A stretch of 64,000 nucleotides of DNA from Prevotella sp. CAG:279. GTDB taxonomy: Bacteria; Bacillota; Clostridia; Lachnospirales; Lachnospiraceae. Of the stretch, positions 7,045-62,451 are shown piece by piece. The stretch spans positions 36,879 through 100,878 of the forward strand of contig CAVHNP010000001.1 of the NCBI GenBank assembly GCA_963637505.1, read 5' to 3'. The first letter of the stretch is position 1, and each line of letters starts with the position of its first letter. The notes beneath the pieces are model-generated. The model made no database searches, was not told the origin of the DNA, and saw only the letters and a program-made list of their open reading frames with translations. Both the position numbers and the translations under genes were made by a program.

Positions 7045-7128
7045 TTAGTACAGTAGCAGTATAGTCGGTTTTACTATGCAATTTTTTCTTCATTAAAATA
7101 ATTGCATAAAAATAAAGAGGTGTTACCT

Positions 7129-11967: not shown

Positions 11968-12062
11968 GGGTGCAGAAGGGTGGCTGGTGTGCCCTCCGGT
12001 CTTCAAAACCGGTATGAGCTGATTTCGGCTCGGGTGGGTTCGATTCCCACCTGTACCCGCCA
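11968..12062 (+). tRNA. selC: tRNA-Sec (anticodon UCA)
   Basis: Hand-folded features: 8-bp acceptor stem (GGGUGCAG/CUGUACCC), anticodon arm CCGGU-CUUCAAA-ACCGG, 6-bp long variable arm (GAGCUG/CGGCUC), T arm GUGGG-UUCGAUU-CCCAC, discriminator G and encoded CCA. Confidence 0.9.
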
Positions 12063-12145: not shown

Positions 12146-12247
12146 TATACTATATCGTACCGCGCTAGCGGTGCGATGCACAGCAGCTCCAAGCATTCGT
12201 AGAATGCTTCTAGTATGAGCTGCATGTCAGCGGTGCGATATAGTATA
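12146..12247 (+). repeat. Structured GC-rich palindromic module in the selC-selA spacer (18-bp outer stem plus two inner hairpins)
   Basis: tatactatatcgtaccgc pairs with gcggtgcgatatagtata (one G-U). Inner hairpins are ACCGC-GCUA-GCGGU and AGCAUUC-GUAG-GAAUGCU. The 5' 31 nt recur at 41946. Confidence 0.6.
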
Positions 12248-13647: not shown

Positions 13648-13692
13648 GCAAAGAAGAGCATTCATTTATGTATGTAATGGAAGGATCATCTT

Positions 13693-15630: not shown

Positions 15631-15743
15631 AAAACCCCAGTGCTTAGCAAGAGGTGCATGGAACATGTGCCTCGAGCTTAGCATCTGCTGGGTTTTTCCC
15701 CGAGCGAAAGCGTGCTTTAGATCCGGCAGAATCATTCTCGGCC
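15595..15743 (-). repeat. Long-hairpin intergenic repeat, copy A (149 nt, inverted relative to copies B and C)
   Basis: Bounded by ggccgaga...tctcggcc. Its reverse complement aligns to copy C with 10 substitutions over 147 positions (hand alignment). Confidence 0.85.
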
Positions 15744-15812
15744 TTTGTGGCTCTAGGAATAACCATCCACACAATCCTGTAACCTCGTATTTAAGTAAAT
15801 TCTCCAAGGTTT

Positions 15813-16691
15813 TCAAGTATACTGCTCATAAACCTGCGTCCGGCATTTGCCCAGAAGGGTCAGTCCGTATTCCTCCGCCAGCTCGATCGCCGCATCGGAT
15901 ACGCTGGCTTTGCTTGCAAGGATAGGGATTCCGGCCTGAATTGCCTTCATAGCCATATCGGTCGGGATTCGTCCGCTGGAAAAGGCGATGCACTTTTTCG
16001 GATCGATTCCATGTCTTAGGGCATAGCCGATCGCTTTATCCAGGGCATTATGCCTGCCGATGTCTTCACAGGTAAAGAGGATTTCCCCTTCCCGCATGAG
16101 AAAACAGCTGTGTGTCGCCCCCGTCTGGGAATGGAGCGGCATTCCCTCTTCAAAACGCTTCGAAAGGGCATAGATCCAGTCGGCTTTCCAGTCGATGGGG
16201 TCTATTTTTTTTAGGGGAAGATCTTTTACAAAATAATCGTTTAAGATCCGGTTTCCGGTACAGCAGGAGGGTGTCACTTCTACATAGGCTTCCTCTGCTT
16301 TTTTCGCCTCCGGGATATCCCCATCCCTTGTCAGCCTTCCATCACCGTCTTTTTCCCTTCTAAAGGACTGCTCTGTACTGTCTTCTCCGCCTTCCTTTAA
16401 GGTTACAAAGGCCTGTTTGCCATATCTGCAGATATAGATCTCCTCCACATCCTCCGCTCCGGAGATGATTCCCTCTGTCAGAAGCCTTCCTAAAACAAGT
16501 TCGGTAAGCTGGGTTGGAATGCAGATCAGCTTCATGGTATGCAGATTGTTAATATAGACATCAATTGCATGCTCAACAAGAACAGACCGCCTTTTGATTG
16601 CGGTCTGTCCATCTGAGCCTACAGCTCTGTATTCTGTTTCTTTGATTGTTTCCGGTTGAAATTCAGTGTATAATTCACGAATTTTCATCAC
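15813..16691 (-). CDS. fdhD: Formate dehydrogenase accessory sulfurtransferase FdhD
   Basis: 292 aa with a C-terminal FdhD signature region (GATHSCFL..., CEDIGRHNALDKAIGYAL). It overlaps the fdhA(Cys) stop by 17 nt. Confidence 0.85.
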   Translation of the reverse strand: MMKIRELYTEFQPETIKETEYRAVGSDGQTAIKRRSVLVEHAIDVYINNLHTMKLICIPTQLTELVLGRLLTEGIISGAEDVEEIYICRYGKQAFVTLKEGGEDSTEQSFRREKDGDGRLTRDGDIPEAKKAEEAYVEVTPSCCTGNRILNDYFVKDLPLKKIDPIDWKADWIYALSKRFEEGMPLHSQTGATHSCFLMREGEILFTCEDIGRHNALDKAIGYALRHGIDPKKCIAFSSGRIPTDMAMKAIQAGIPILASKASVSDAAIELAEEYGLTLLGKCRTQVYEQYT

Positions 16692-19407
16692 TTATCTTCT
16701 CCACCTTGATCGCGCATACCTTATATTCCGGAATCCTGCAGATGGGGTCTAAGGCAGAGTTTGTCAGCCAGTTTGCATTGCCATCCGGGAAGTGGAAGGG
16801 CATCCAGGTTTCTCCTTCCGAAACCTTCTTTCCGACACGGGCAGTGGACTGAATACTTCCTCGTCTGGAAGAAACCCTTACCAGCTCTCCGTCCTTGATT
16901 CCGATTCTTGCGGCATCCATTTCGTTGATCTCGATAAAGGATTTTCCGGAAATCTCCATCATACCCGGAGTACGGCCTGTCATGGCACGGGTTGTGTAAT
17001 GATAGAGAATACGGCCTGTCATCAGATAGAGGGGATAATCCTTATCCGGAAGCTCGATCGGGTCTGAATATTCTGTCGGATAGAGCCAGCCGAGACCACG
17101 GGAGAATTTACCCACATGCATAATCGGTGTGCCCGGATGATCCTTGGTCGGGCAGGGCCACTGCAGGCCGTTTCCGGCAACCTCCTCGCTATCCAGCCTC
17201 TCGTGGGAAATACCGCCGAAGCTCGGTGTGAGAGAAGCAACCTCATCCATGATCTGGGCAGAAGTCAGATGCGGCTGCGGATAACCCATACGATTCATCA
17301 GATCAATGATGATATCGGTATCCAGACGGATATCGAATTCCGGATCCTTGGTCAGATCAACCGCCTTACGAACACGGCAGACCCTTCTTTCTGTATTGGA
17401 GAAGGTTCCTTCCTTTTCCGCATAGCTCATACCTGGCAGGATAACATCTGCGAATTCTGCTGTTTCCGTCATGAAAAGCTCCTGCACAACAAAGAAGTCC
17501 AGGCTGGAAAGAGCCTTACGGATATGAGTTGTATCCGGATCTGTAACCACAGGATCCTCTCCATAAATATAAAGTCCGCGGATTTCCTTCTTAATTGCTT
17601 TCGGGAATACATCGGTTGCAAAGGTACCGATATTCGGATCCAGTTCCACGCCCCAGGCCTTTTCGAATTTTGCACGGATGGCATCATCTGTTACATCCTG
17701 ATAGCCCGGGAACTTATTCGGCATAGCGCCCATATCGCAGCCACCCTGTACATTGTTCTGGCCACGAAGAGGGTTGACACCACAGCCGGACCGACCGATC
17801 TTACCGCAAAGCATAGCCATATTGGACATGGACATAACGCCAACCGTACCATTCGAGTGCTCTGTTACACCCAGACAGTAAATGATCGGTGCCTTGTCTG
17901 CTGTGGCATACATACGGGCAGCCTCGATCAGCTGATCCTTATCGATATGGCAGGCCTCTGCAACAACTTCCGGTGTATAATCCTTTACGATCTCCTTGAG
18001 AGTCTCATAGCCTTCTGTTCTTTCTGCAATGAACTTTTCGTCTACAAGACCTTCCTCGATCATAACATGCATCATACCGTTTGCGAACATAATATCTGTT
18101 CCCGGCTTTAATTTCAGATGAATATCGGCATACTTGGTAAGGCCGATATCTCTCGGATCTACAACGATCAGCTTGGTTCCCTTTCGAACCGCTTCACGGA
18201 TCTGCATACCGACTACCGGATGAGCTTCTTCCGGATTGGAACCAACCAGAAGGATACAGTCTACATCATGAGTGATATCGTAGATCGGATTTGTCATGGC
18301 ACCGGATCCGAGGGTAATGGCCAGTCCGGATACGGAAGCAGAATGGCAGACGCGGGCGCAGTTATCGGTATTATTATTTCCGAAGCAGCATCTTACCATC
18401 TTCTGAACCATGTAGATATCCTCATTCGGGGAACGGGAGCAGGCAAAACCGGCCAGAGAGCTGGAGCCATACTTCTTCTTGATCTCCATGAATTTAGAAG
18501 CGACCAGATCCAGGGCTTCATCCCAGGAAGCTCTTTCAAATTCACCTGTTTCCTTATTCTTGATCAAAGGATATTTGATACGATCCTTGGAATGAACAAA
18601 ATCAAAGCTGGCGGAACGTCCCTTGACACAGAGTCTGCCATGGTTGCTTGGTCCGTCTGCAGGCTCACAATCTACGATTTTATTATCTTTGACGATCAGA
18701 TCATACTGACAGCCTGTTGCGCAGTGGGGACAGGTGGTACGTACACGCTTGATTTCCCATTCACGATATTCTTTTCTTCTTTTTTCTTTTAAAGCACCGG
18801 TCGGACAGGCCATTGCACAGTTACCGCAGGATTCGCAAAGGGTATTCTTCCAGTTTTCTCCAAAGGGAGCATCGATTACGGTAAACATACCTGTCTTATC
18901 CAGTTCGATCGCGCCTCGTCCGGAAACATGATCACAGGTGCTGACACAGCGCATACAATGGATGCAAAGATTGGGATCATAGCTGAGGAAGGGATGCTCA
19001 TCCTTGGGTGCCGGATTGATCTTATAGCGGGTTCCCTCATAGCTGGTATAGTTTACGCCATAGTCATTGCAATATCTCTGCAGATCACAGATACCGTTAT
19101 TCGGACAGGAAAAACAATCCTGATGGTGGTTGGAGAGGAGAAGATCGAGCACGGTTTTTCTTGCTGCTACAACTCTCTCTGACATAGTATCGATCACCAT
19201 TCCTTCCTGCACTAAGGTATTGCAGGCCGGCGGCATTTTTTCCATTCCTTCTACATCAACAATACAAAGGCGACAGGAGCCGATCTCGTTTACTCCCTCC
19301 AGATAGCAGAGGGTCGGGATCTCGATGCCGGCGGATCTGGCTGCCTTTAAGATGGTCGTTCCTTCTTCTGCCTCAATGGCAATTCCGTTTATCGTTACAT
19401 GAATCAT
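16675..19407 (-). CDS. fdhA: Formate dehydrogenase alpha subunit, Cys-type paralog (910 aa)
   Basis: Colinear with 8966..11875 and shares blocks IPTLCYLE, NEIGSCRLC, LLLSNHHQDCFSC, GMFTVIDAPFGENW, RVRTTCPHCA, ASWDEALDLVASKF and NNTDNCARV. Cys replaces Sec. Confidence 0.9.
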   Translation of the reverse strand: MIHVTINGIAIEAEEGTTILKAARSAGIEIPTLCYLEGVNEIGSCRLCIVDVEGMEKMPPACNTLVQEGMVIDTMSERVVAARKTVLDLLLSNHHQDCFSCPNNGICDLQRYCNDYGVNYTSYEGTRYKINPAPKDEHPFLSYDPNLCIHCMRCVSTCDHVSGRGAIELDKTGMFTVIDAPFGENWKNTLCESCGNCAMACPTGALKEKRRKEYREWEIKRVRTTCPHCATGCQYDLIVKDNKIVDCEPADGPSNHGRLCVKGRSASFDFVHSKDRIKYPLIKNKETGEFERASWDEALDLVASKFMEIKKKYGSSSLAGFACSRSPNEDIYMVQKMVRCCFGNNNTDNCARVCHSASVSGLAITLGSGAMTNPIYDITHDVDCILLVGSNPEEAHPVVGMQIREAVRKGTKLIVVDPRDIGLTKYADIHLKLKPGTDIMFANGMMHVMIEEGLVDEKFIAERTEGYETLKEIVKDYTPEVVAEACHIDKDQLIEAARMYATADKAPIIYCLGVTEHSNGTVGVMSMSNMAMLCGKIGRSGCGVNPLRGQNNVQGGCDMGAMPNKFPGYQDVTDDAIRAKFEKAWGVELDPNIGTFATDVFPKAIKKEIRGLYIYGEDPVVTDPDTTHIRKALSSLDFFVVQELFMTETAEFADVILPGMSYAEKEGTFSNTERRVCRVRKAVDLTKDPEFDIRLDTDIIIDLMNRMGYPQPHLTSAQIMDEVASLTPSFGGISHERLDSEEVAGNGLQWPCPTKDHPGTPIMHVGKFSRGLGWLYPTEYSDPIELPDKDYPLYLMTGRILYHYTTRAMTGRTPGMMEISGKSFIEINEMDAARIGIKDGELVRVSSRRGSIQSTARVGKKVSEGETWMPFHFPDGNANWLTNSALDPICRIPEYKVCAIKVEKISDENS

Positions 19408-21242
19408 TCGTCTCTGCCTCCTTTCAATACACCACAGCCAAAGTGGTCACATCTCAGACAGCGGTTTGCTTCCTGCATGGCTTCTGCATGGGTCAGTTCT
19501 ACTTCCACGCCTTCAAAATCACATTTTCTGATGAAGGCCGGACGCTCCGTTACATTAACCCTTCCGGTCGGAACACGGTTATTTTCCTTCGCCGGCGGTA
19601 CCTCCACATTACAGGGGAGCTTATGATGATAGCCAAGGTATTCATCGATATTGTGGGCAGCAACCTTTCCTGCCGCAATGGCGCGAATAGCAGTAGAGGG
19701 GCCTGTTGCACAGTCACCTCCGACAAATACGCCTTCCATATCCTCCACTCTGGTAGTAAGAGAGGCCTCAAAAACGCCTCTGTTTGCCTTCATGCCGAAT
19801 TCTTCAAAAGGAGCGGAGATGATATCCTGGCCGACAGCGATCAGAACGATCTCACAGGGAACCCGGATCTCATCCTTCTCTGTATCCATAGGGCTGGGTC
19901 TTCCGGCACGATCATAAGGTCCGATCATCTGCGGCTTAACAAAGAGGGCAGTGGTATTGCCATTTTCATCCGCTTCAATGGACTTTGGTGCCATCAGGGT
20001 CATAAATTCAATACCCTCCTGCATGGCGGATTCGATCTCAGACTCTAATGCCGTCATATCTTCCTTTCGACGACGGTAGATAACACGGACATCCTTTGCT
20101 CCGCATCTGACAGAAGAACGGGCCGCATCCATGGCAACGTTTCCGCCACCAATGACACAGACGGTCTTGCCGGTATAATCCGGCTTTATGCCATTGCCGA
20201 TGCCATCCAGCATATCTACCGCAGAGTCAACACCCTTGGCATCTACATTGTCCAGACGAAGCTTTTTACCCTCCTGAGCGCCGATCGCAACAAAGAGGGC
20301 ATCATATTTTTCATGTAATTCCGCAATTTTTTCCGCTGTATCAATATGGGTATTGTATTTTACCTCGATATCACCTGCAGACAGAATGGCATTAGTATCC
20401 TCCTCCAAGCGGTTCTTCGGGAAACGGTAATTCGGAATACCATAGCGAAGCATGCCGCCCAGCTTATCATGGCGCTCATAGACAGTCACCTTATGTCCCA
20501 TCTGACCTAAGAAATAAGCACAGGTCAGACCTGCCGGGCCTCCGCCGATCACACCGATATGCTTGCCGGTGGAAGGATTTGCCTTTGGAACCTCGACCTT
20601 ATCTGCTGCGACCTGGTCGACTGCATATTTTTTCAGTCCTCGGATATTTACGGCATCATCGATCAGATTTCTCCTGCATCTTTCCTCACAGGGATGCTCA
20701 CAGATCATGGCACAGGCCGTCGGGAAAGGATTGTCCTTCCGGATCATATTAATAGAAGCGGCATAGTCCTCCTGACCGATCAGGGCAATATAGGCCGGTA
20801 CATCTACATGAGCCGGACACTGATGGATACAGGGCACCATCTGACCAGATTCACTCGGACAGACATGCTTCTTGATATGACTTTCGTATTCCTCTGCAAA
20901 GGTATCCAGTCCAGCCAGAACCTCCGCTGCGGACTGATAACCGATCGCACAATCAGAGGACTGGGTGATCATGGTTGCCAGACTTCTCATCTGATCTAAG
21001 GTCGTTTCATCAGCATCTCCATCCAGGATCTTCTTGAGAAGATTGGACAGCTGCGGCAGACCGTCCCTACAGGGTACACACTTTCCGCAGGTCTGGTTCA
21101 TGGAAGCCAGAAGAAAAGAATACTGTACCGTCAAAGGGCAGGTTCCCGGCGGATAAACCTCTACCTTTGTACTAAACTTATTCAAGATATTTTTAATTTT
21201 TACATCCGTGCTTTTGGGATCAGCTAGATATAGTTGACTCAT
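19404..21242 (-). CDS. FDH electron-transfer subunit paralog (NuoF-type FeS + GltD-like oxidoreductase)
   Basis: 612 aa, colinear with 7129..8973 and with the same motifs. It overlaps the fdhA(Cys) start by 4 nt. Confidence 0.85.
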   Translation of the reverse strand: MSQLYLADPKSTDVKIKNILNKFSTKVEVYPPGTCPLTVQYSFLLASMNQTCGKCVPCRDGLPQLSNLLKKILDGDADETTLDQMRSLATMITQSSDCAIGYQSAAEVLAGLDTFAEEYESHIKKHVCPSESGQMVPCIHQCPAHVDVPAYIALIGQEDYAASINMIRKDNPFPTACAMICEHPCEERCRRNLIDDAVNIRGLKKYAVDQVAADKVEVPKANPSTGKHIGVIGGGPAGLTCAYFLGQMGHKVTVYERHDKLGGMLRYGIPNYRFPKNRLEEDTNAILSAGDIEVKYNTHIDTAEKIAELHEKYDALFVAIGAQEGKKLRLDNVDAKGVDSAVDMLDGIGNGIKPDYTGKTVCVIGGGNVAMDAARSSVRCGAKDVRVIYRRRKEDMTALESEIESAMQEGIEFMTLMAPKSIEADENGNTTALFVKPQMIGPYDRAGRPSPMDTEKDEIRVPCEIVLIAVGQDIISAPFEEFGMKANRGVFEASLTTRVEDMEGVFVGGDCATGPSTAIRAIAAGKVAAHNIDEYLGYHHKLPCNVEVPPAKENNRVPTGRVNVTERPAFIRKCDFEGVEVELTHAEAMQEANRCLRCDHFGCGVLKGGRDE

Positions 21243-28496: not shown

Positions 28497-28694
28497 GTTA
28501 TGGTATTCCCAATTGAATTATTTACTCCGATCCTTTTGGCCTAAGGCAGAACTGCTTCTATGATCTCTGCTATGGTGACTGGGACGGGATTTCTGGAATC
28601 CCCGGGGTGGCAGAGGAAACTAAGCTGCCTTCCATTTATCGAAAAGGAGCAAAGAAAAAGCAGCCCCAGGTTGCTCTTTTATTCTGCATATTCA

Positions 28695-41804: not shown

Positions 41805-41903
41805 TATAACTAATGAATTTTACCACAATCAGGCGGAATGCACCAGAGTAACGCAAGGAAACAGGCTTTGGAGCTAATAAGAATTGAGATGCATTGAGAA
41901 TAA

Positions 41904-42133
41904 GGCTGAGAATGATTCTGCCGGATCTAAAACACGCTCTCGCTCTATATCGTATCGCCCTGGCGATGCGATGCACGCGAGGCGCCATCGTGCAAAGCAC
42001 GATTTAAAATGGCGCCGGAGTCCCGAACGGAAAAACCCAGCAGATGCTAAGCTCGAGGCACATGTACCATGCACCTCTTGCTAAGCACTGGGGTTTTTCA
42101 ACGGTTTTTGATCCTGGGCAGAACATCTCAGCC
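41904..42133 (+). repeat. Long-hairpin intergenic repeat, copy B (230 nt, carries a nested 83-nt insertion)
   Basis: Bounded by ggctgaga...tctcagcc. Outside 41946-42028 it is colinear with copies A and C. Confidence 0.85.
41946..42028 (+). repeat. Nested GC-rich hairpin module inside copy B
   Basis: The first 31 nt match 12151-12181 at 27 of 31 positions. It contains the hairpins AUCGC-CCUG-GCGAU and GGCGCCAU...AUGGCGCC. Confidence 0.65.
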
Positions 42134-42156
42134 CTTTTTAATTACAAAACATCCTG

Positions 42157-43366: not shown

Positions 43367-44485
43367 TTATCTATGAACGGAATAGAGATAAACCTCGTGT
43401 TCCTCCTCATTAAAGCCCTCATAAAAGCCCTGCTTTGCCCCGTCTACAATTCTCTGCCCAAAGTTATAAAGAACCAGCAACTGCTTCCGTCCCTCATCAA
43501 AGGAAAGTCCCTCTATCTCCCCCTGTCTTGTCACCTCGGCAATGCCTTTTTCCGCCTCAAGGCTTGACCTTCCATCTTCAGACAGCGTTACCCTGTAGAT
43601 ATGGTCTGCTTCTCCCTGATCCGCATCCCCATCATCCGCAGAAAGGTAATAGTCTCCCTGATAATAGGTAATCCCCTGAATCCGTTCCGGTGCATTACCC
43701 ATATAGATTTTTCTCAAAAATGCCCCTGTTGCAAGGTCATATTCATAAAGATACTTTGCTGCTTCTCCTTCTCCCCATTCACAGGCCATCAGAATTCCCT
43801 GCTCTTCATTGACGCAGATACCGGCTCCCTCTTCCTGACCGCTCTCTCCGTCAAGAGGCTGACTGCTCAGGAGCTGCAGGCTTTCTGCATCATATACCGC
43901 CAAATGAAGATTAGAAGCCTGTCCTTTCGAAAATTTCTCTACAAGACAATATAACTTTCCTCCACTGACATCGAGATCACCGATATGATTTACCTTTTCC
44001 TCATAGCCCCAGGCAAAGGGATCGGTGTTTTCTGTGATCAGATTCCAATCCTTGTCATATTTGGCAAGAGCCTTGCTGCTGCTGACATAATAATAGTCTG
44101 CCGAAGCGCAAATGCCCTGCCTGCCCTCTACCTTTACAACGTTGAAGAGGGAATAGATATTCTGCTTTGCCTCTGCACTTGTATCCGTGTTTTCTTCTGC
44201 TTGTGAATCTGTCTGCTTCTCTGTCTGAAGTTCCGATCCATCCGCTACGTTCTCCGACAAATCCGCGGATGCATCCGAGGCAGTGGAATCAGAACTTGTT
44301 ATGCTTTCTGCCTTCTCTGTCCTATTCTCCGCCTCTGTTTCGGAAGCGCTGCTTTTCTGCCCGGCAGTTTCCGGAGCTTCCGGAGCTTTTCTTCCGATAA
44401 GAGAATGGCAGATTGCCAGAAGAATCAGAAGCAGGAGGATGACCTCTGCAAGAAGTATGAAATTTTTTCTTTTCCTATTTTTCAT
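43367..44485 (-). CDS. Membrane-anchored/secreted hypothetical protein with a probable beta-propeller-like C-domain
   Basis: N-terminal signal anchor, an acidic S/T/E-rich linker, then repetitive beta-rich sequence. No family was recognised with confidence. Confidence 0.5.
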   Translation of the reverse strand: MKNRKRKNFILLAEVILLLLILLAICHSLIGRKAPEAPETAGQKSSASETEAENRTEKAESITSSDSTASDASADLSENVADGSELQTEKQTDSQAEENTDTSAEAKQNIYSLFNVVKVEGRQGICASADYYYVSSSKALAKYDKDWNLITENTDPFAWGYEEKVNHIGDLDVSGGKLYCLVEKFSKGQASNLHLAVYDAESLQLLSSQPLDGESGQEEGAGICVNEEQGILMACEWGEGEAAKYLYEYDLATGAFLRKIYMGNAPERIQGITYYQGDYYLSADDGDADQGEADHIYRVTLSEDGRSSLEAEKGIAEVTRQGEIEGLSFDEGRKQLLVLYNFGQRIVDGAKQGFYEGFNEEEHEVYLYSVHR

Positions 44486-44597
44486 TTTAATTTCTGATTC
44501 TAAGTTACCCTTCTGTTTCTAAGTTACGTATCAGTAACTTTTCATGTAGACAAGAAGATTTGCCCCTCTGCTCGCACAAGTAAAAAGAAAGACCAGA

Positions 44598-44996
44598 TCA
44601 TATGACCCAGTCTTCCACTTTTAGATTTGGCACTCTGCTGAACTCACCAACATTATGGGTAATCAGAGTAACGCCAGCAGTCAGAGCCTGCGCTGCAATC
44701 TGAACGTCATATGGTCCGATTGGTGTCCCCTGCTTTTCAAGATAGCCTCGTAACCTTCCCGCAGAAACAGCATCATCTGACGAAAAAGGTAAAATAGTAA
44801 ATGGAGCTAAAAACATAGCAAGCTTTTCCCTGGTTCGATCCCCCCAGTTACTTTTCTCTGCCCCATACTCCAATTCAAAGACCGTAATAGAGGAAATCAG
44901 GAACTCAGATGGACTGTGTGCCAGGATTTTCTGTGAAAGTAAGGGATACCGATCTTTCATGAAATAAATACAGATATTGGTATCCAATAAGTACAT
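44598..44996 (-). CDS. vapC: PIN-domain toxin VapC
   Basis: 132 aa beginning MYLLDTNICIYF with conserved acidic residues. It overlaps the antitoxin stop. Confidence 0.85.
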   Translation of the reverse strand: MYLLDTNICIYFMKDRYPLLSQKILAHSPSEFLISSITVFELEYGAEKSNWGDRTREKLAMFLAPFTILPFSSDDAVSAGRLRGYLEKQGTPIGPYDVQIAAQALTAGVTLITHNVGEFSRVPNLKVEDWVI

Positions 44997-45232
44997 CAGA
45001 ATTCCTCTCTTTCAGCCACATCATCCCAGGACGGCTGCTTTCTCTCCTCCATAAATTCCTCGGAGAAAGTACCGATCACCTGACGAACCGGTGCCCACGG
45101 ATCCTTCACGGGATAAGCTATAAAAATCTCTCCCACCTTGTTGATGCAATATTCGTTTTCTTCCGTTCGCAACTCTTGCGGGATGCGAATCGCCTGACTG
45201 TTGCCGTTTTTGAAAACACGGGTCGTCATCAT
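44996..45232 (-). CDS. vapB: AbrB/SpoVT-fold antitoxin VapB
   Basis: Start at MMTTRVFKNGNSQAIRIP with an AGAGGTG RBS. Confidence 0.8.
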   Translation of the reverse strand: MMTTRVFKNGNSQAIRIPQELRTEENEYCINKVGEIFIAYPVKDPWAPVRQVIGTFSEEFMEERKQPSWDDVAEREEF

Positions 45233-45248
45233 ATGAATCACCTCTTTC

Positions 45249-45269
45249 GTGTGTACGATATGTGTGTAC
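45249..45269. promoter_or_regulatory. Direct repeat GTGTGTAC x2 (13-nt period) between the vapB promoter and RBS; candidate TA operator
   Basis: Read directly. The second copy forms the palindrome TGTACA. Confidence 0.4.
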
Positions 45270-45358
45270 ATCTATATTATATATTATCGTGGTGAAAAAA
45301 CAATCAAATTCTAATCATCTTGCAGTTTTTAAGCAAAAGTGTCTGATTGGTCGTTAAT

Positions 45359-45406
45359 CGAACACTTTAGATACTTTTCGAACACTATCGGTCACTTTAC
45401 GAACAC
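45359..45406. repeat. Three CGAACAC direct repeats at 20- and 21-bp spacing
   Basis: Copies are at 45359, 45379 and 45400. The third is part of the near-palindrome CGAACAC-CTA-GTGTCCG. Confidence 0.5.
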
Positions 45407-45439
45407 CTAGTGTCCGATAAACAAGAATCTCCTTCCCCC

Positions 45440-46435
45440 CTACTGCAGTAAAGCAAACTCATATCCCTTTTCCCTTGCCTGGTCGATAAAATCTCCCAGG
45501 ATCTGCGTATTGGTAGAACCGCTCAGATGAAGGAGATAGATTGCGCCCGGATGTAAGTCGTCCAGCAAAAGATCTAAAGCCGCCGCCGGCTCCATCTGCT
45601 TATTTGCATCATAATCATGATAAAAACTGCTGTAGAACACGGATTTATAATTGCAATTATTTACAATCGCCAGCCCTCTTTCAGACCAGTTGCCCGAAGG
45701 AAAACGGAAGAGATGCATACTGTAATCAAAATTCTCCAAAATATAATTATGAAGATCCATGACATCTTCTTCTGTAATCGCTACCGCTCCTTCCGCATCT
45801 GTCGGATGGCTCATCCCATGGTTTCCAAGTTCATGCCCTTCCGCGATCATCCTCTTTACCAAATCCGGGGCGCTTTTCGCATAATAACCAACGATAAAAA
45901 AGACTGCCGGAACCTCTTTTTCTTTTAAGATATCAAGCGCCTTGGCTGTATATCCCCCTTCATACCCAAGATCAAAGGTCAGATAAAGAAGAGGCGGCTC
46001 CGTATCTTCGCCGATAAAACAGGCCTGATACTTATCCCCGTATTTTTCCTGCATTTCCAGAGCCTCTATGGGTCTGTTTTTTTCATCGCTTGCCTTGCCA
46101 AGGCCCCATTCTCTGACCGTATTATCGAGACTATCTATATTTTCGATCGGTGTATTTTCAATGTAAATAGAGGTAACATTTCCCTTCGCATCCACACTTC
46201 CCTTGAGGCTTTCCGCCTCTGCCTTTTCTTCTCCGCTTCTCTCCCCGGCATCTGCACTGAGCATTTCTCCTGTCTGTCCCGCTGACTTTTTTTCCGCTTT
46301 TTGTATCTTTCCTACGATGAAATGGATTCCAAAAATCAGTAAGAAGAGAAATAAGGCCATCTCAGCTATGAGCAAACGCCTGCGAAGAATAGCCCTTCTT
46401 CTGCGCTCCCGCTTGCTCAGTCTTCTTTTTTTCAT
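45440..46435 (-). CDS. Polysaccharide deacetylase family protein (PdaA-like), N-terminal membrane anchor
   Basis: NodB-type motifs (TFDLGYEGG, HELGNHGMSH). Confidence 0.8.
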   Translation of the reverse strand: MKKRRLSKRERRRRAILRRRLLIAEMALFLFLLIFGIHFIVGKIQKAEKKSAGQTGEMLSADAGERSGEEKAEAESLKGSVDAKGNVTSIYIENTPIENIDSLDNTVREWGLGKASDEKNRPIEALEMQEKYGDKYQACFIGEDTEPPLLYLTFDLGYEGGYTAKALDILKEKEVPAVFFIVGYYAKSAPDLVKRMIAEGHELGNHGMSHPTDAEGAVAITEEDVMDLHNYILENFDYSMHLFRFPSGNWSERGLAIVNNCNYKSVFYSSFYHDYDANKQMEPAAALDLLLDDLHPGAIYLLHLSGSTNTQILGDFIDQAREKGYEFALLQ

Positions 46436-46552
46436 ACTGCTTTTCTCCCGATTGGTTTAACCCTAACATTTTGATTTTATCAAACCCATGGCATATGCTC
46501 AATTATTTTACGGTTTAAAAACAAGGAAAAATATGGAGGTTAGTCCTATACG

Positions 46553-46587
46553 AAAAAAGAGGAAGTGAACCTCCGTCCACTTCCTCT
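46553..46587 (-). terminator. Rho-independent terminator after the lipoprotein gene
   Basis: 10-bp stem agaggaagtg / cacttcctct followed by a T-run on the minus strand. Confidence 0.7.
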
Positions 46588-46635
46588 GCCCTGCCATGCT
46601 ATGGCAAATACGCTTTTCTAATATTCCTCTCTTTT

Positions 46636-48405
46636 CTAATCCTCCTGCTCCGCCGTCGGATCTTCCGTCTGAATAATATATCTTAGGCTCGACTTTGTCC
46701 CCTCTGCCGCACCTGAGAAGGAAATGCTTTGCCCCTCTGCTTCTCTCTGTTCCCGAATCTTCTGCACAATCTCTTTTAGATCATCTCCTGCCAGATCGCT
46801 CAGCTCCTGTATTGCTTCCCGATCGAACTCCTCAAAGCCGTCAGCCAGAGAATAAAGGCCGGCATTCAGACTGCTGTAACTCTCATTTAAGACAGCTCCC
46901 GCCGAAATCAAACTGTCCACACCGGACTGCAGGCTCTGCCACTCTTCCTCTGTAAAAAGACTGGCGGAATCCCTACTGCCCGTCTCTTTTCCGTCTTCCT
47001 TACTGCCGCTTCCTGTCAGGGAAGAGAGGCTCTCCAGCCGAGTCTGCATATCGCTGACTGCAGAAGTAATGCTTTCGATCTTTTCTGTATTCAAAAGACC
47101 CTCTTTTGCAGCTGCAATATCGGAATCTGCTCCGACAAGAGCCTCTTCTAAAGCAGCATAGTCTTCTGCCGGAATCTCTGTATGGAACTCCTTGAAGCTG
47201 CTGAGCGCATCCTTGGCTTCTGTAACATGGGATGAAGCCAGATCCAATTTACTGATCGCTGTCTGCTCCTCTGTTACCAGACTGGAAATGCTTGCTGCAT
47301 CGGCCGCGATGGCAGTCAGAGAGGCGGAGGCCTCTGTCAGCTGCGTCCCGGAGCTTTCCATTGCCGCAGATACCTGGCTCTTGATCGTATCCAGGCTGGT
47401 CAGCATGGTAGACAAGGCCTTATTTACACCGGAAACATACTGGTCTAAATAGCTGCCAAAGAGATCTGCCCCGCTTGCCAACTCATTGCTTCCGTCAAGG
47501 ATCTTAGAAGAAGCCTCGGAAAGATCCTCCATGTCATCTGTCATTTCATCGACATCCTCCAGATCCTCCTCTTCCAGCTCATTGAATAGACCGTCTGTCA
47601 CCAGAGTTGCCGAAAAATCCAGGCTGAAGTCTTCTGCATGGGCAGTGAATTCGACATATTCCGGAAGCTCCGTATTCTCTGTCACTTCCCAGTCATTCAG
47701 CTTCAAGGAATCCATAAATCCCGGCACGGCATAGCCGATCACGGCCTGAGTTCCGCTCAGCTCGGCCAGGCTGCCGTTTTCCACCTTTACATCCGTGAAA
47801 ACATCCTCCGGCAGGACCACCATGGTCATAAAGAGATAGGGCATCGTGACAGACTTCATTTCCCCATCCTTCTCAATCTCCACGCTTTGCCTATTCGTAT
47901 AATCAAAGCGAACCTTCACCTCACCGCTTGCTCCGGCGATCTCTTCCGGGCTAACCTTTTTCCCATTTAGATAATAACTCACGCTGACGCCGACCGGAAG
48001 AGAAGCATCTGACTCCCCTTCATAATGAATATCTTCTCCAAGGCTCTGCCAGATCAGCTGTCCATCATCGGAAAGCTGAAACTCCTCATCTCCCTCTGTA
48101 TTCCGAATCTCCTTCAGATTCGTCTGATCCAGGATAAAATCGCCACTTTCCGTCCCTTTCAGCAGGTCGCTGACGGTAATCTTTTTCGGATTACCCTCCG
48201 CATCTGCTTTTACCTTTACCGTCTCCTCTTTTTCTGTGGCTGGAACTGCTTTTTCGGCAGAAAAGACGATCTGCTTTTCTTCTGCAACAGCATTTCCTGA
48301 TGCACTGTCCCCACTTGCCGAGGCAGAGCCGCAGGCGGAAAGGAGCAGGGAAATCCCCAGCAGGGCAGCCAGAGGGATCGGATTTTTCTTTTTTCTATTC
48401 CACAT
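46636..48405 (-). CDS. Lipoprotein with a YhgE/Pip-like coiled C-terminal region, partner of the ABC exporter
   Basis: Lipobox LLSAC and repeated LxxGxxxL segments. It overlaps the permease gene by 11 nt. Confidence 0.6.
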   Translation of the reverse strand: MWNRKKKNPIPLAALLGISLLLSACGSASASGDSASGNAVAEEKQIVFSAEKAVPATEKEETVKVKADAEGNPKKITVSDLLKGTESGDFILDQTNLKEIRNTEGDEEFQLSDDGQLIWQSLGEDIHYEGESDASLPVGVSVSYYLNGKKVSPEEIAGASGEVKVRFDYTNRQSVEIEKDGEMKSVTMPYLFMTMVVLPEDVFTDVKVENGSLAELSGTQAVIGYAVPGFMDSLKLNDWEVTENTELPEYVEFTAHAEDFSLDFSATLVTDGLFNELEEEDLEDVDEMTDDMEDLSEASSKILDGSNELASGADLFGSYLDQYVSGVNKALSTMLTSLDTIKSQVSAAMESSGTQLTEASASLTAIAADAASISSLVTEEQTAISKLDLASSHVTEAKDALSSFKEFHTEIPAEDYAALEEALVGADSDIAAAKEGLLNTEKIESITSAVSDMQTRLESLSSLTGSGSKEDGKETGSRDSASLFTEEEWQSLQSGVDSLISAGAVLNESYSSLNAGLYSLADGFEEFDREAIQELSDLAGDDLKEIVQKIREQREAEGQSISFSGAAEGTKSSLRYIIQTEDPTAEQED

Positions 48406-50728
48406 TTTTCAAAGCCTCCTCCATCGGGATTTTTTTGATCTTCCGATATTCCAGAAAGGCAACCAGAAGATAGGTACCAAATCCCAAGGCGATCATTTCC
48501 AGATAGATCTTATTATCGATATACGGCGGGATCCAGCCGCTCATCTGTGTTGCAACGTAAGCCTTCCATACCCAGCTGACGGAAACAGCCTCAATCGGCA
48601 AGGACAGCAGGATCAGAAGAAAGGTTACGATTGTAGTCGGTCGGATATAGAGACTTCGGATCTCCGCATCCGTCATACCGAGAATCTTGGCCATGGAAAT
48701 GGACTGGGTATTTTTCTCAATGATCACCTTGGAAAGGAGGTAGATCAGGATCATAAACATAAGGATGCCAAAGGCATCCATGAGATACATGATTCCTCCC
48801 ATAGAGGTCAGCAGCTGTCTGGAGACCTTGGTCATGGACTCATAACTGATCACACTTCCGATATACTCCTGAGGAATATCCCTGATCTCCGTATCGGAAA
48901 AATAGCCGGAAAAGGTATCTTTCCCCAGATCAAAGGTCTCATTCAGCTCTTCCTGCGGCAGGAAAAGGGCAAGGGCGCTGTCCAGATCATAAATGCCCCC
49001 TACGACAAAGTCATAGCTCTTATCTTCAAAGCTCTCCTTCAGGCTGATCCGGTCTCCGATCTTTATCCCATACTTGTCCGCATAGGCAGAGGTGATCAAG
49101 ACCTCTCCCTTCTTCAGGTCGGCTTTAACATAGCGGCTGTCTTTTTGAATGCCGTAAAGGAGGATGGAATCCACAATATTCCCCTCCTTAGCCGGAATGG
49201 TATCCAGAGAATAGGCCGTGAATTTTTCGGCATCCTCGTTCTCTGTTTCTGCCTTTTGGGCATATTCGAGGAGATTCAGCATGCTGGACAGCTGATCATC
49301 CTCATCCAAGGCCGCAGAGGGAATCTGCAGGATATACTGATATTGGGCAATCATCATATCCGGAATACTCTCCTGATAATGGTTCAGGAGACTCGGCAGA
49401 ATCAAGCCATAGATCAATAGCAGATTTGCGAATAAGATCCCGACTGCCATCGTGACATAATTCGGAATATTCTGCAGGATTACCCTGATCCGGTATCGGG
49501 TGAAAAGCTTCATGCTTTCATTTAAATGAAGGGATCTGCTCTGCCTCTTTTTCTTCAGATCCCTTTTCAGAAATTTAAGAGGAGAAAGTGCCAGCTTCCT
49601 TCTCAGCATGAAATAAGTGATGAAAAGCATGAGCAGAATCGGCACCAGGGTCGTTTTCCAAAAGGCCTCCCCATTCCAGACCGTAACATAGGTCGGCAGG
49701 GAATAGCTTCCATAATAAATATCCGCACAGATATCTTTTAACAGGGTATAACCCAGAGCATTCCCCACAAGAGCCGAAAAAAGCGTAACCAGGAAGGGCA
49801 CCCTCATATAATGACGGATCAGTTCATTTTTGGTATAACCGGTTGCACGCAGGGTTCCGATCACGGCTGCTTCCTTTGTAATGGAAGCACTGATGGTCAC
49901 GGCAAATACAAAGGCCAGGATCCCGATAATGATATAGAGAAATACTGCCATCATGGCTGCATCTCCGCTGATATCCTCCCCTGCAAAGGTAATGGCCTGA
50001 TTGCTGTATTCCGGCGTAAAATCAAGAAGAGAGACCTGATCATTCAAGTCTTCCAGAAACTCTTCTGCCATCTCCTTCGCTTCTGTCTTATCCGCCGGAG
50101 ACTTCTGATATTTCCAGGCATACCGATACTTTACGCTTCCGCTGTCATAAGAGGCAAACTCCTCTTCCGATACAACTGCCACGCCAAAGAGGGTAGCATC
50201 AAACATGGTATCGCTGTTCTTCTCAAAGAGACAGCTGTAATCCGAAAAGGCCAAAAGACCCGTAATGGTCCAGCTCCTCTCTCCGGATCGAATCTCCTCT
50301 CCGACAGAAAGACCGTTATTATCCGCAAACATCCTGTCAATAGCGATCTCCCCTTCTTTTTCCGGCATTTTCCCCTTCATGATACAGATCTTATCTACCT
50401 GCTCTCTATCTTTGAAAAGGCGAAGCTTTGCCCCCGTATCCAGCTCCTTTTCCGTATAAAAAAGGTCATAGATGGACACCCCAAGCTTCTCTATCTGCTG
50501 CTTGGAATTGGCATTCAGCTTTCTTTCCGAGGTGAAATTTCCATCTTCTATATTGTATTTTTCAAATCCCTCCTGATAGGCAAGAACCATGCTCTTATCC
50601 GCCACCAAAAAGCCGGAAATGAGGCCGATCGAGGAAATCATCAAAAAGAAGATCACAAGGTACTTTCCCAGATCCTCCCTCAGCTCTCTCCAAACCCTGC
50701 CGTTCAGAGGGTTCCTTCTTTTCTTCAT
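48395..50728 (-). CDS. FtsX-family ABC transporter permease (two FtsX modules, MacB-like)
   Basis: 777 aa with two 4-helix bundles separated by large extracytoplasmic domains. Confidence 0.8.
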   Translation of the reverse strand: MKKRRNPLNGRVWRELREDLGKYLVIFFLMISSIGLISGFLVADKSMVLAYQEGFEKYNIEDGNFTSERKLNANSKQQIEKLGVSIYDLFYTEKELDTGAKLRLFKDREQVDKICIMKGKMPEKEGEIAIDRMFADNNGLSVGEEIRSGERSWTITGLLAFSDYSCLFEKNSDTMFDATLFGVAVVSEEEFASYDSGSVKYRYAWKYQKSPADKTEAKEMAEEFLEDLNDQVSLLDFTPEYSNQAITFAGEDISGDAAMMAVFLYIIIGILAFVFAVTISASITKEAAVIGTLRATGYTKNELIRHYMRVPFLVTLFSALVGNALGYTLLKDICADIYYGSYSLPTYVTVWNGEAFWKTTLVPILLMLFITYFMLRRKLALSPLKFLKRDLKKKRQSRSLHLNESMKLFTRYRIRVILQNIPNYVTMAVGILFANLLLIYGLILPSLLNHYQESIPDMMIAQYQYILQIPSAALDEDDQLSSMLNLLEYAQKAETENEDAEKFTAYSLDTIPAKEGNIVDSILLYGIQKDSRYVKADLKKGEVLITSAYADKYGIKIGDRISLKESFEDKSYDFVVGGIYDLDSALALFLPQEELNETFDLGKDTFSGYFSDTEIRDIPQEYIGSVISYESMTKVSRQLLTSMGGIMYLMDAFGILMFMILIYLLSKVIIEKNTQSISMAKILGMTDAEIRSLYIRPTTIVTFLLILLSLPIEAVSVSWVWKAYVATQMSGWIPPYIDNKIYLEMIALGFGTYLLVAFLEYRKIKKIPMEEALKNVE

Positions 50729-51426
50729 TACCAGTCCAGCTCCTCCGCCTTCACTTTCTCCCTGTTCAGCTGATCCGAACGAATTCTGCCGTCCTTCAGA
50801 TGAATCACCCGGTCTGCCATATATTTGATCGCATCATTATGTGTCACCATCAGAATGGTATTTCCATAGGTCCGGTTCAGGGTCTCGATCAGCTTCAGGA
50901 TCTCGATGGAGGTATGAAAATCCAGAGCGCCCGTCGGCTCATCGCAAAGCAGAATATCCGGATTCTTGATAATGGCACGACCAATCGCACATCTTTGCTG
51001 CTGTCCTCCGGAAATCTGATTGGGCAGCTTTCTCTGATGCTCCCAGAGTCCCAGGGTGTGAAGGAGTTCATCCGTATCCAGAGGCTTCTCGCTCAGATAG
51101 GCTCCAACCTCGATATTTTCACGCACTGTCAGGTTGGGAATGAGATTATACATCTGGAAAATATAACCCAGATGCTTTCTTCTGTATCCGGTGAGGGCTT
51201 TTTCTGTCATTTTGCCGACCTTTTCTCCCTCTATGCTGATTTCTCCACAGTCCGGCTGATCGATGCCGCCGATAATGTTCAATAATGTTGATTTTCCGGA
51301 GCCGGAAGGTCCTAGGAGAAGGCAAAATTCTCCTTTATTGCAAGCAAAGTCGATGCCCTTTAGGACATCGACCTTACTTTGACCTTCTCCGAAAGATTTT
51401 TTCAGATTTCTAACTTCGAGAAACAT
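50728..51426 (-). CDS. ABC transporter ATP-binding protein (MacB/LolD-type)
   Basis: Start at MFLEVRNL (GAGGAGAGA RBS). Motifs are GPSGSGKST, ISGGQQQR and ILLCDEP. Confidence 0.85.
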   Translation of the reverse strand: MFLEVRNLKKSFGEGQSKVDVLKGIDFACNKGEFCLLLGPSGSGKSTLLNIIGGIDQPDCGEISIEGEKVGKMTEKALTGYRRKHLGYIFQMYNLIPNLTVRENIEVGAYLSEKPLDTDELLHTLGLWEHQRKLPNQISGGQQQRCAIGRAIIKNPDILLCDEPTGALDFHTSIEILKLIETLNRTYGNTILMVTHNDAIKYMADRVIHLKDGRIRSDQLNREKVKAEELDW

Positions 51427-51516
51427 TTTTTCTCTCCTCATCGAAGATATCACTATTTCCATGGAATGAATCTTCAAGCAGCGCATTTCCAAAAGAAAAG
51501 GCTTTGCTCCGCTCTC

Positions 51517-51939
51517 TTATGATGCAACTGCTGCACCAAGGGCATTGCATTCTGCGATCGCGTCATCATCCGGTGCTTCATTTGCGATCACGCAGTCGTA
51601 GCATAACTGAACACCCAGATCGTCGCATTCGGATTCCCAGTTTCTCATCCACTCGCCGTCTCCCCAGCCATAGGATCCGAAAAGAGCTACCTTCTTACCA
51701 TTCAGCTTGCCCTTTACATCATCCCACATCGGCTGGAACTCGCTCTCCTCCAGAACCTCGCATCCCATGGAGGGGCAGCCAAAAGCAATGCCTGTATAAT
51801 CAGCAATCTTAGCTGCGGTAAAATCACCTGCAAAGATCAGATCCGCTTCAACGCCTTTTCCCTTTGCTCCGTCTGCAACCGCATTCGCCATTGCCTCTGT
51901 GTTTCCGCCGCCTGTCCAAAATACAACTGCTACTTTCAT
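51517..51939 (-). CDS. Flavodoxin
   Basis: 140 aa beginning MKVAVVFWTGGGNTE, with a short-chain flavodoxin pattern. Confidence 0.85.
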   Translation of the reverse strand: MKVAVVFWTGGGNTEAMANAVADGAKGKGVEADLIFAGDFTAAKIADYTGIAFGCPSMGCEVLEESEFQPMWDDVKGKLNGKKVALFGSYGWGDGEWMRNWESECDDLGVQLCYDCVIANEAPDDDAIAECNALGAAVAS

Positions 51940-51963
51940 TTTCTTTTTCCTTTCAATTTAAAC

Positions 51964-52515
51964 TCAGATCGATACGAGCAGGCCTTCTAAGCTGGTTCCC
52001 CTTCCCGAGCGCTCCTGATAATTTCTTGTACATCTGCGATAACGCTCAAAGGTACGTTCTGCCTCTTCCTGATTCCCGTATACTTTCCAGGTTCCCACGC
52101 TCTTACAGTTGCGCGCACTGTTTTCTATAAAGCCTTTTACATCTTCCGGAGGATAGCTCAAAAACAAGCCGATCTCATGAGGAAAATCCGCACTCTCCCT
52201 CAGCCTTCTTTTCAGCTCACATAGGCATTTTCCTACGCTCTCACAGGCATAACCCCTTTCCCGAAGCAGTTCCTGCACTTCCTTTCTGCAAAGGTCATCC
52301 TTTAACCTGCCCGGACGGTAAAGATATAAAAGTACTCTGCCCTTATCATAGTGCAAGGGGATCAGACAGATTCCCTTGGCACGAAGCCGCCTGTTATAGG
52401 TCTTCAGTTCATCTAAAAATACGGCACGATCCTCGGCCCGGACAGAAAAAAGGCTTCCTGTTTTGATGCCAGCCAGAGTTGGTGCTCCATGATCTATCAA
52501 TGTCTGATCTGACAT
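51964..52515 (-). CDS. DUF3793-family protein
   Basis: 183 aa; the sequence type is commonly found next to flavodoxin in Clostridia (family recognised from memory). Confidence 0.6.
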   Translation of the reverse strand: MSDQTLIDHGAPTLAGIKTGSLFSVRAEDRAVFLDELKTYNRRLRAKGICLIPLHYDKGRVLLYLYRPGRLKDDLCRKEVQELLRERGYACESVGKCLCELKRRLRESADFPHEIGLFLSYPPEDVKGFIENSARNCKSVGTWKVYGNQEEAERTFERYRRCTRNYQERSGRGTSLEGLLVSI

Positions 52516-52538
52516 AGAACCTCCGATTTTCAGGGGGG

Positions 52539-52566
52539 ATGTGGGTTAGAAAAATCTAACCCACAT
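52539..52566 (-). promoter_or_regulatory. 11-bp perfect hairpin in the 5' UTR of the DUF3793-flavodoxin operon
   Basis: atgtgggttag-aaaaat-ctaacccacat. No U-tract follows on either strand. Confidence 0.5.
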
Positions 52567-52615
52567 ATAAAAAAATAAAGATATCAGGTACTGTTAGCTC
52601 TCGCTAACTGTCGTT

Positions 52616-52643
52616 AGTATATCACATCTTTCGAAAAGGTCAA
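52616..52643 (-). promoter_or_regulatory. Promoter (-35 TTGACC, 16 nt, extended -10 TGATATACT)
   Basis: Counted on the minus strand. Confidence 0.5.
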
Positions 52644-52699
52644 TAGGTTTTTTAAGATTTTTTGCAAGTCCTTATGATAGCTATTTCCCTGGCCAGGCC

Positions 52700-52728
52700 T
52701 TGAAAGCAGCTTCTATCCGTGCTATTAT
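52700..52728 (+). promoter_or_regulatory. Promoter (-35 TTGAAA, 17 nt, -10 TATTAT) firing antisense into the 3' end of the 49-codon ORF
   Basis: Counted on the plus strand. No plus-strand protein gene lies downstream. Confidence 0.45.
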
Positions 52729-52734
52729 GATTCA

Positions 52735-52838
52735 TAAATAAAGAAGGTGCTACCGATAGACGGCTAGCCCTATGCTAAATCAAAACGACGGTCGTTCTAA
52801 TCTTTGCTAGGGATTTTCTAACGGCGGTCGTTTTTGTG
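52735..52838 (+). ncRNA. Candidate ~100-nt antisense RNA (putative type I antitoxin)
   Basis: Inferred from the promoter at 52700 and the weak hairpin + T-run aacggcggtcgttttt at 52820-52835. It overlaps the last ~20 nt of the small ORF and its 3' UTR. Confidence 0.3.
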
Positions 52839-56202: not shown

Positions 56203-56270
56203 GGCTTGGGGCTTCGCATTTTGAGAAGAGCTAAACAACTTAGTTAACTCACATAAACCAATATGAAAAA

Positions 56271-56417
56271 GACGAGAATGATTCTGTCGGATCTAAAACA
56301 CGCTCCCGCTCGGGGAAAAACCCAGCAGATGCTAAGCTCGAGGCGCATGTTCCATGCCCCTCTTGCTAAGCACTGGGGTTTTTCAACGGTTTTTGATCCT
56401 GGACAGAACATCTCGTC
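56271..56417 (+). repeat. Long-hairpin intergenic repeat, copy C (147 nt)
   Basis: Bounded by gacgaga...tctcgtc. It lies between the convergent aspartate kinase and sbcC genes. Confidence 0.85.
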
Positions 56418-56488
56418 TTTTGCTTTACTTTTGCAAGATAGCAAAAGCTCCGGCTGAGTATTTCTGTTAAAAATTCAGACACTCGCTC

Positions 56489-62213: not shown

Positions 62214-62377
62214 TTTTGCTCACAGCTGTGAAACTTCTTATCTGTAACTTTCTTTCAATGCATTACAACAAAAAAGAATCTCTACTCTACTATTATAATA
62301 ATCAAGGCCCTCCTTTGAATCAACCGAATTTTCCATCATACAGAAAGAGATCCTATATCCTTAAAGATCGAATAAAA

Positions 62378-62411
62378 GGCTGAGAATGATCCTGGGCAGA
62401 ACATCTCAGCC
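62378..62411. repeat. Short (34-nt) derivative of the long-hairpin repeat
   Basis: ggctgagaatgat + cctgggcagaacatctcagcc, i.e. the outer 5' and 3' ends of copy B joined at a shared GAT. It is followed by tttt. Confidence 0.7.
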
Positions 62412-62451
62412 TTTTGTGGCATTGCCATCCATAATTTTATCGTATAGAAAT

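Follow-up and report, generated by a model that had tools for sequence, protein, structure and literature searches.

A modular hairpin repeat with a nested 83-nt module in an uncultured Clostridia species and its variation among strains

Genes and large hairpin repeats in the window

The window (the whole stretch of DNA analysed, 64,000 nt) belongs to an uncultured Clostridia species known only from a few MAGs. Its selC-selA-selB-fdhD genes are flanked by two inverted paralogous sets of formate-dehydrogenase/NADH-oxidoreductase genes (7102-11875 and 16675-21242), which were 72–82% identical. One fdhA carries an in-frame TGA (10028-10030, selenocysteine); the other is an uninterrupted 910-codon ORF. 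At Rfam gathering thresholds, the whole window gave tRNA-Sec and a Moco riboswitch only (the latter at 28513-28665, 68.2 bits). Four copies of a large hairpin repeat, 150–236 nt in element size, were found within the 64 kb by repeat finding and alignment.

15581-15746, minus strand: copy A, plain form
41902-42137, plus strand: copy B, nested form
56267-56421, plus strand: copy C, plain form
62377-62416, plus strand: copy D, collapsed form, outer 5′ end joined to outer 3′ end (AAAGGCTGAGAATGAT/CCTGGGCAGAACATCTCAGCCTTTTG; here and below, a slash within a sequence marks a junction)

Copy A lies between the convergent genes selB and fdhD, copy C between the convergent genes for aspartokinase and sbcC, and copy D after a gene. 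Copy B was made up of the following parts, all on the plus strand.

41902-41945: 5′ outer arm (AAGGCTGAGAATGATTCTGCCGGATCTAAAACACGCTCTCGCTC), pairing with the 3′ arm
41946-42028: nested small module (alignment, fold, pattern search)
41949-41972: hairpin 1 of the module (ATCGTATCGC-CCTG-GCGATGCGAT), then GCAC
41981-42016: hairpin 2 of the module (GGCGCCAT-CGTGC-AAA-GCACG-ATTTAAA-ATGGCGCC)
42026-42030: AACGG, first of the 5-nt direct repeats bracketing the central hairpin (read from the sequence)
42031-42099: central hairpin module (AAAAACCCAGCAG...CTGGGGTTTTTC), common to copies A and C and missing at site B in four other strains
42100-42137: 3′ outer arm, starting with the second AACGG and ending GCCCTTTTT

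The 5′ arm of copy B was 93–95% identical to the arms of A and C, and its central hairpin was 98.6% identical to that of A and 95.9% identical to that of C. The second AACGG (42100-42104) forms the inner end of the 3′ arm. AACGG on both sides of the central hairpin was found only in copy B; A and C have GGGG on the left. Segment 41902-41945 pairs almost fully with 42100-42137, and the same holds for A and C, so that the repeat has the terminal inverted repeats of a MITE. It is also small, noncoding, and multicopy, as MITEs are. As for a target-site duplication of fixed length, a further MITE feature, the strains compared held no true empty site (L014 at site A and L005 at site B keep one-arm remnants), and the repeat ends merge into A/T runs.

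All copies folded far better than shuffled sequence. Relative to shuffled controls, whole copy B (−116.2 kcal/mol) had z = −10.4 and copy C had z = −8.8. The outer stems covaried among copies (GGCCGAGA/TCTCGGCC, GGCTGAGA/TCTCAGCC, and AGACGAGA/TCTCGTCT). The junction of copy D is a TGAT microhomology. Copy D retains GGCAGAA, and the partner of this segment in full copies, TTCTGCC, is gone; copy D thus arose by deletion and is no precursor. In L017, the most divergent strain, copies C and D were unaltered. Copy C is not considered specially conserved, because it sits within a 421-nt block that is identical throughout anyway.

The right flanks of A (15747-15790) and D (62417-62450) both contain TTTGTGGC ... 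CCATCCA ... TCGTAT, and the flanks of two further copies described below, P0122 (AFVAVTSH) and P0129 (AFAARIAITWH), resemble them. The segment common to A and D may be an additional 3′ module of the repeat family.

The 3′ end of selB, approximately 11 codons together with the stop codon (15590-15630), lies in an arm of copy A. Up to the stop codon, the SelB C-terminus reads HVLISKGRDVLPRIKSR in the window and HVLIRKRRET or similar in relatives. It varied by strain (GRDVLPRIKSR vs. GRDVLPSIL, the latter in L014 at 13330-13363), and related species end in RKRRET or RKTKAE. A coding role for the frame open in A and C was rejected: the insert of copy B breaks this frame, and the substitutions lack a synonymous bias (copies A and C differ by 5 nonsynonymous and 3 synonymous changes in the one frame that is open).

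The outer stem is at least 8 bp long and is followed by T4–T5, with A2–A5 on the opposite side; a consensus terminator scan does not call the long hairpins. Judged from this layout and from the gene arrangement around copies A, C, and D, the repeats could plausibly serve, at most, as a bidirectional terminator or 3′-end stabilizer at gene ends. No transposase, and no IS with matching ends, was found in the 64-kb window (Pfam).

The nested module and its counterparts upstream of selA

A sequence-only reading had reported that copy B is colinear with the other two long copies, A and C, apart from an 83-nt insert with its own hairpins, and alignment confirmed this (A taken as reverse complement; insert at 41946-42028). 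The insert comes after ...CACGCTCTCGCTC. Copies without it have CGCTC/GGGGAAAAACCC at this point, and copy B has CGCTC/TATATCG...CCCGAAC/GGAAAAACCC, which leaves two G missing. Both hairpins that had been proposed for the insert appeared in the minimum-free-energy fold, and the insert alone folded with z = −4.05 on the plus strand and z = −2.35 on the minus strand. The module ends with the tail GGAGTCCCGAAC. In copy B it reads into the rubrerythrin gene from the 3′ side, antisense to that gene, and has no gene downstream. A search for a target-site duplication at the insert gave nothing convincing (TCTCGCTC vs. TCCCGAAC, 5/8).

The first 31 nt of the module (41946-41976) recurred, as had also been noticed, in the selC-selA spacer at 12151-12181 (27/31, E = 7e-5 within the window). 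A degenerate hairpin-1 pattern was present at two places only in the window, copy B and this spacer, with 0 expected in shuffles. The spacer features are as follows.

11968-12062: tRNA-Sec
12147-12246, plus strand: small module (spacer copy), between the selC terminator and selA
12262: selA start

In the spacer copy, hairpin 1, GCAC, and hairpin 2 are followed by a repeat of the 3′ half of hairpin 1. This duplicated half gives an 18-nt terminal inverted repeat (TATACTATATCGTACCGC...GCGGTGCGATATAGTATA) and makes two mutually exclusive pairings possible; the insert of copy B has no such right-hand inverted repeat. Hairpin 2 of the spacer was wholly different in sequence from that of copy B, but its architecture was kept (outer stem, inner stem, 3-nt loop, and a 7-nt bulge on the 3′ side). 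In strain L014 (GCA_963611805.1; 9797-9989) the spacer module was tandemly duplicated as two units of approximately 84 nt that were approximately 94% alike.

A related species (L022/L023, SelA 74% identical) carried the small module in its own selC-selA spacer. The order in L022 was terminator, hairpin 1, hairpin 2, an exact second hairpin 1, and then GAGGTGATT-ATG, with hairpin 1 adjoining the ribosome-binding site. The L022 module is flanked by two identical, directly repeated 29-nt imperfect hairpins, and its hairpin 2 contains an extra 27-nt hairpin. The outer stem and tail of hairpin 2 in L022 (GGCGCC...GCGCCGGTGTCC) were like those of the copy B insert, and its inner stem (AAGCGTTC/GAACGCTT) was that of the window spacer (AAGCATTC/GAATGCTT) with one compensatory pair. 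The module was not found in the same spacer of three other related species. In its place, L015 had an unrelated structured leader, L024 had an IS200-like tnpA (1181-1534) directly upstream of selA, and L026 had a different hairpin, yet with a selC terminator matching that of L022. A selA leader conserved across the genus was thus rejected; because the module is missing in these three species, its distribution is patchy.

Other insertions and repeats were seen in the same neighborhood. L022 has a hipBA-like toxin-antitoxin cassette between selB and fdhD (13584-15079), and another short hairpin repeat (ACCGTATAGGAACGAAGTTTCCTATACGGT, ATGTAATAGGAACGAAGTTCCTATTACAT) occurs near selC in L022 (approximately 9620-9660 and 9700-9725) and L026 (approximately 1230-1260). 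The selA/selB neighborhood is an insertion hot spot in the related species, whose genomes hold several hairpin families.

In a comparison of seven sequences, in which covariation support is weak, hairpin 1 was paired in 94% of cells and had one compensatory pair. RNAalifold gave 5 pairs with double changes in a run in which L022 was misaligned. Rfam E-value scans of each repeat gave nothing beyond a subthreshold match to GA-cis (RF02987), which covers hairpin 2 and the tail of the B-type module (41974-42041). The match scored 24.2 bits on L001 (E = 0.002–0.003) and 21.9 bits on the window (E = 0.0065), both below the gathering score of 34.7 bits; L022 gave a 12.8-bit partial match and the spacer copy gave none. 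The GA-cis signal is a lead, not membership. A SECIS-like, SelB-binding hairpin was rejected as an identity for the module, since the SECIS of fdhA (TGA at 10028-10030) shares no loop or stem features with hairpins 1 and 2.

Alleles at orthologous sites and further loci

Contigs of at least five strains (approximately 97–99% nucleotide identity) were obtained through exact-protein look-ups. One further contig of 8,321 nt (L018, Logan SRR13434599) was 100% identical to window positions 44449-52769, which indicates the same strain in that sample.

Site B showed three allelic states among six strains. The window has the arms, the small module, and the central hairpin. L001–L004 have the arms and the small module but lack the 69-nt central hairpin and one AACGG (junction ...GGAGACCTAACGG/TTTTTGATCC). 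L005 retains only a one-arm remnant (AAAAAGGGC/AGAATCATTCTCAGCC, joined at a GGC microhomology). Strains thus vary at this orthologous site, and the variable piece is the central hairpin, not the small module. The alternative that had been raised for the direction of the event, in which deletion from the 230-nt form at identical boundaries produced the 147- to 149-nt forms, was not observed. At site A, L014 kept one arm (AAAAGGCCGAGATGTTCTGCCCAG) and was missing 158 nt; this loss stops exactly after the A/D-type right-flank segment.

The alleles at site B differed by more than presence or absence of modules. In L001–L004, approximately 6 linked positions of the 83-nt module differed from the window (ACATGAGG vs. 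ACGCGAGG, one A fewer, and GGAGACCT vs. GGAGTCCCG), compared with less than 1% in the flanks, so that simple insertion or deletion in place is insufficient to account for the alleles. The loop of hairpin 1 was CCTG in the window and L001 and TTTA in L002, L003, and L004 (positions 3746-3769 of L001–L004). Flanks of L003 and L001 differed at only 0–7 sites, and the three clustered changes in the 4-nt loop look like conversion from another, unseen copy. The flank phylogeny was ((window,(L001,L003)),(L002,L004)), with 34 informative sites in support; the other flank agreed weakly. On its own, this phylogeny favors the view that the window lineage gained the central hairpin. An ancestral nested form at site B would mean that the hairpin was lost twice or that its loss spread by recombination. 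Together, the phylogeny and the linked substitutions require conversion or recombination between copies, whichever direction is assumed.

Spurious ORFs that read through repeat copies gave access to more loci. The frame that is open through plain copies, with an ATG within the 5′ arm, was used as query in an exhaustive protein search leading to NCBI MAG contigs. At least six further loci were recovered, of which at least five were plain (P0121, P0122, P0123, P0124/P0128, and P0129, each with its own flanks) and one was nested (P0125). P0121 reads through a full-length copy and then through the same 18-nt flank as copy D (AFCGIAIH, that is, TGTGGCATTGCCATCCAT).

P0125 (MILLDQKHALALYRIALAMRCTRGAIVQSTIYNGAGVQRKTQMLSS...) has the same left junction as copy B (KHALA/LYRIALAM, equivalent to CGCTC/TATATCG) and a slightly shorter right junction, and it carries the window-type diagnostic sites. 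Its arms differ from those of copy B at four residues and its flank reads AFFV, not ALFNYKTS, before the stop codon. On these differences in a protein sequence, P0125 is probably a locus other than site B. The identical left junction bears out the suggestion that the small module is tolerated in the stem of the larger repeat. Plain loci outnumbered nested loci 7 to 2, and the form with arms and small module only was seen at site B alone.

An exact 20-mer of the 3′ arm was absent from GTDB species representatives and JGI metagenomes, in which only chance matches within hflX and acylase genes were found. Six scans of viral contigs (central hairpin, 5′ arm, both hairpin-2 types, and hairpin-1 patterns) gave 0 hits, BLAST against plasmids and phages gave no match, and a concatenated six-frame peptide query against an index of 5.8 billion proteins gave nothing.

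Origin of the composite form and comparison with known repeats

Arms, central hairpin, and small module were independently present or absent among loci and strains, as is the case in composite repeats of the BOX/BIME type. We consider copy B to be a composite, noncoding small interspersed repeat that has been remodeled by hairpin-promoted deletion, duplication, and conversion (probability approximately 0.65). The repeat is built of three modules that can be separated: inverted arms of approximately 45 nt, which form a long stem with A and T runs on either side; the 69-nt central hairpin; and, as an option, the 83-nt two-hairpin unit, which lies where the 5′ arm ends on its inner side. Most of the loci seen have the plain form (arms and central hairpin). 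The nested form would have arisen in a single event, or in several events at one site, in which the small module was inserted beside CGCTC or joined there by template switching. The nested composite would then have been propagated or conserved at no fewer than two loci.

The order of events that we favor is that a plain repeat gained the module once, that the composite was copied or retained, and that a later loss between the AACGG repeats removed the central hairpin from site B. The 7 plain and 2 nested loci fit this order, with the plain repeat first and the small module later. Slipped-strand deletion across a hairpin, between very short direct repeats (AACGG, TGAT, and GGC), could remove modules or one arm; units could duplicate in tandem, and dispersed copies could convert one another. 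Conversion between copies would account for the linked differences and for the conflict with the phylogeny. The repeats may have spread through a transposase acting in trans or through recombination. The sequence-only reading had concluded from the nesting that at least one of the two families is mobile or recombinogenic. The two families are indeed separable, and strains differ by whole modules at orthologous sites, but a clean transposition into copy B was not supported.

An opposite polarity at site B, which we regard as unlikely, would make the central hairpin the newcomer: an older form with arms and small module, as in L001–L004, would have acquired the 69-nt hairpin in the window lineage, either through an insertion that duplicated the 5-nt AACGG or through template switching onto a plain copy, with GG as the microhomology. 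In favor of such a gain, the hairpinless form occurs in four strains from both sides of the deepest split and the window is nested with L001 and L003 in the flank phylogeny. The bracketing of the hairpin by AACGG in copy B only, its near identity to the hairpin of copy A, and the presence of TCCCG in the window, as in plain copy C, where L001–L004 have ACCT, point the same way. However, the GGGG found in place of AACGG on the left side in A and C indicates that the hairpin is no duplication-making transposon, and the second nested copy, P0125, probably lies elsewhere and has the window-type diagnostic sites. Moreover, the form with arms and small module occurs at no other locus, and all other polymorphisms found were losses.

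Two further explanations concern the nature of the small module. It may be a functional, GA-cis-related RNA that acts as a cis-regulatory selA leader, with the copy in B a displaced and possibly active paralogue; we find this improbable. Its position between the selC terminator and the selA start in both the window species and L022/L023 agrees with such a role, as do the compensatory changes in hairpin 1 (CCGC/GCGG vs. TCGC/GCGA) and in the inner stem, the fit of every wobble pair to the plus strand, the extended −10-like box (TGATATAAT / TGATATACT) directly 5′ of the module, and GA-cis as the only Rfam match (E = 0.002–0.007). Yet these scores are below threshold and the spacer copy lacks the match, the same spacer has no module in L015, L024, and L026, module copy number differs between strains, the copy in B is antisense to the 3′ end of rubrerythrin with no downstream gene, and the covariation support from 7 sequences is weak. 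Less credible still, the module may be a PATE-like miniature element of the IS200/IS605 type, mobilized in single-stranded form by a Y1 transposase. This would explain why it entered a hairpin-prone arm with neither terminal inverted repeats nor a target duplication. The two identical direct 29-nt hairpins that bound the L022 module (in L022 only), the IS200-like tnpA in the same selA-upstream spacer of L024, and the lack of a clean target duplication at B are compatible with this origin. Nevertheless, the left flanks (CGCTC, ATATAC, ATATAA, and CTTTTT) have no common target motif, the hairpin downstream of the L024 tnpA is unrelated to hairpin 1, the window contains no Y1 transposase, and the window spacer copy has an 18-nt terminal inverted repeat instead.

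The data document a family of modular hairpin repeats that had not been described before, in a gut-type Clostridia lineage that is poorly known. The strain snapshots show its decay and remodeling through deletions at 3- to 5-nt microhomologies, tandem duplication of units, and conversion-like tract swaps. The repeats also reshape genes: the SelB C-terminus comes from a repeat arm, and the selA leader varies by strain. Spurious ORFs are called across copies, and knowledge of the family may help annotation as well as strain typing. Understanding of this class of elements is unchanged, and wider interest could come only from a possible link of the small module to GA-cis RNA and selA regulation. 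A speculative proposal of low probability is that the 83-nt module is a portable structured RNA cassette, a distant GA-cis relative that serves as the leader of selA (selenocysteine synthase) in at least two species and is carried inside terminator-like repeats. If true, then a regulatory RNA would be hitch-hiking on a MITE-like vehicle.

Length variants of ERIC and Correia elements reportedly arose through internal deletions or through insertions at fixed internal sites (Wilson and Sharp in 2006, and the Correia literature, are said to describe them), a point of likeness with the present repeat. The present repeat has no sequence relationship to BOX, RUP, SPRITE, ERIC, Correia, or REPIN. Hairpin 2 and its tail align with GA-cis RF02987 (GAGGnGCC ... 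C(G/A)AAG loop ... UUAnAAUGGCnCCG) and share its asymmetric 3′ bulge, although the scores stay below the gathering score and the spacer paralogue gives no match. Like ERIC/IRU and Correia (NEMIS) elements, which are 100- to 160-nt imperfect intergenic palindromes that affect transcript ends, the repeat can be fused in frame with gene ends, as copy A is with selB (Delihas 2008, PMC2229807); unlike these MITEs, which have TA target duplications and defined terminal repeats, its ends merge into A/T runs. With REPIN/BIME elements it shares two inverted units that form a long hairpin, mosaics of palindromic units, vertical persistence, and conversion and decay (Bertels and Rainey 2011, PMC3116915), but no RAYT gene was seen and the arms are not short GC-rich REP palindromes.

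The BOX, RUP, and SPRITE repeats of Streptococcus pneumoniae (Croucher et al. 2011, PMC3049150) offer a further comparison. BOX elements are composite and differ in how many boxB units they contain; BOX, RUP, and SPRITE have been found nested in each other, and SPRITE is terminator-like (PMC3049150). Unlike BOX, the present repeat has arms that are mutual inverted repeats and an optional module that is a two-hairpin unit, not tandem boxB; its sequence is not similar to that of the three families, and its host is a Clostridia MAG species. Like them, it is shorter than 250 nt, intergenic, tightly folding, and modular, with an internal module that varies or is absent by strain, enrichment at the 3′ ends of genes, and spurious ORFs across its copies.
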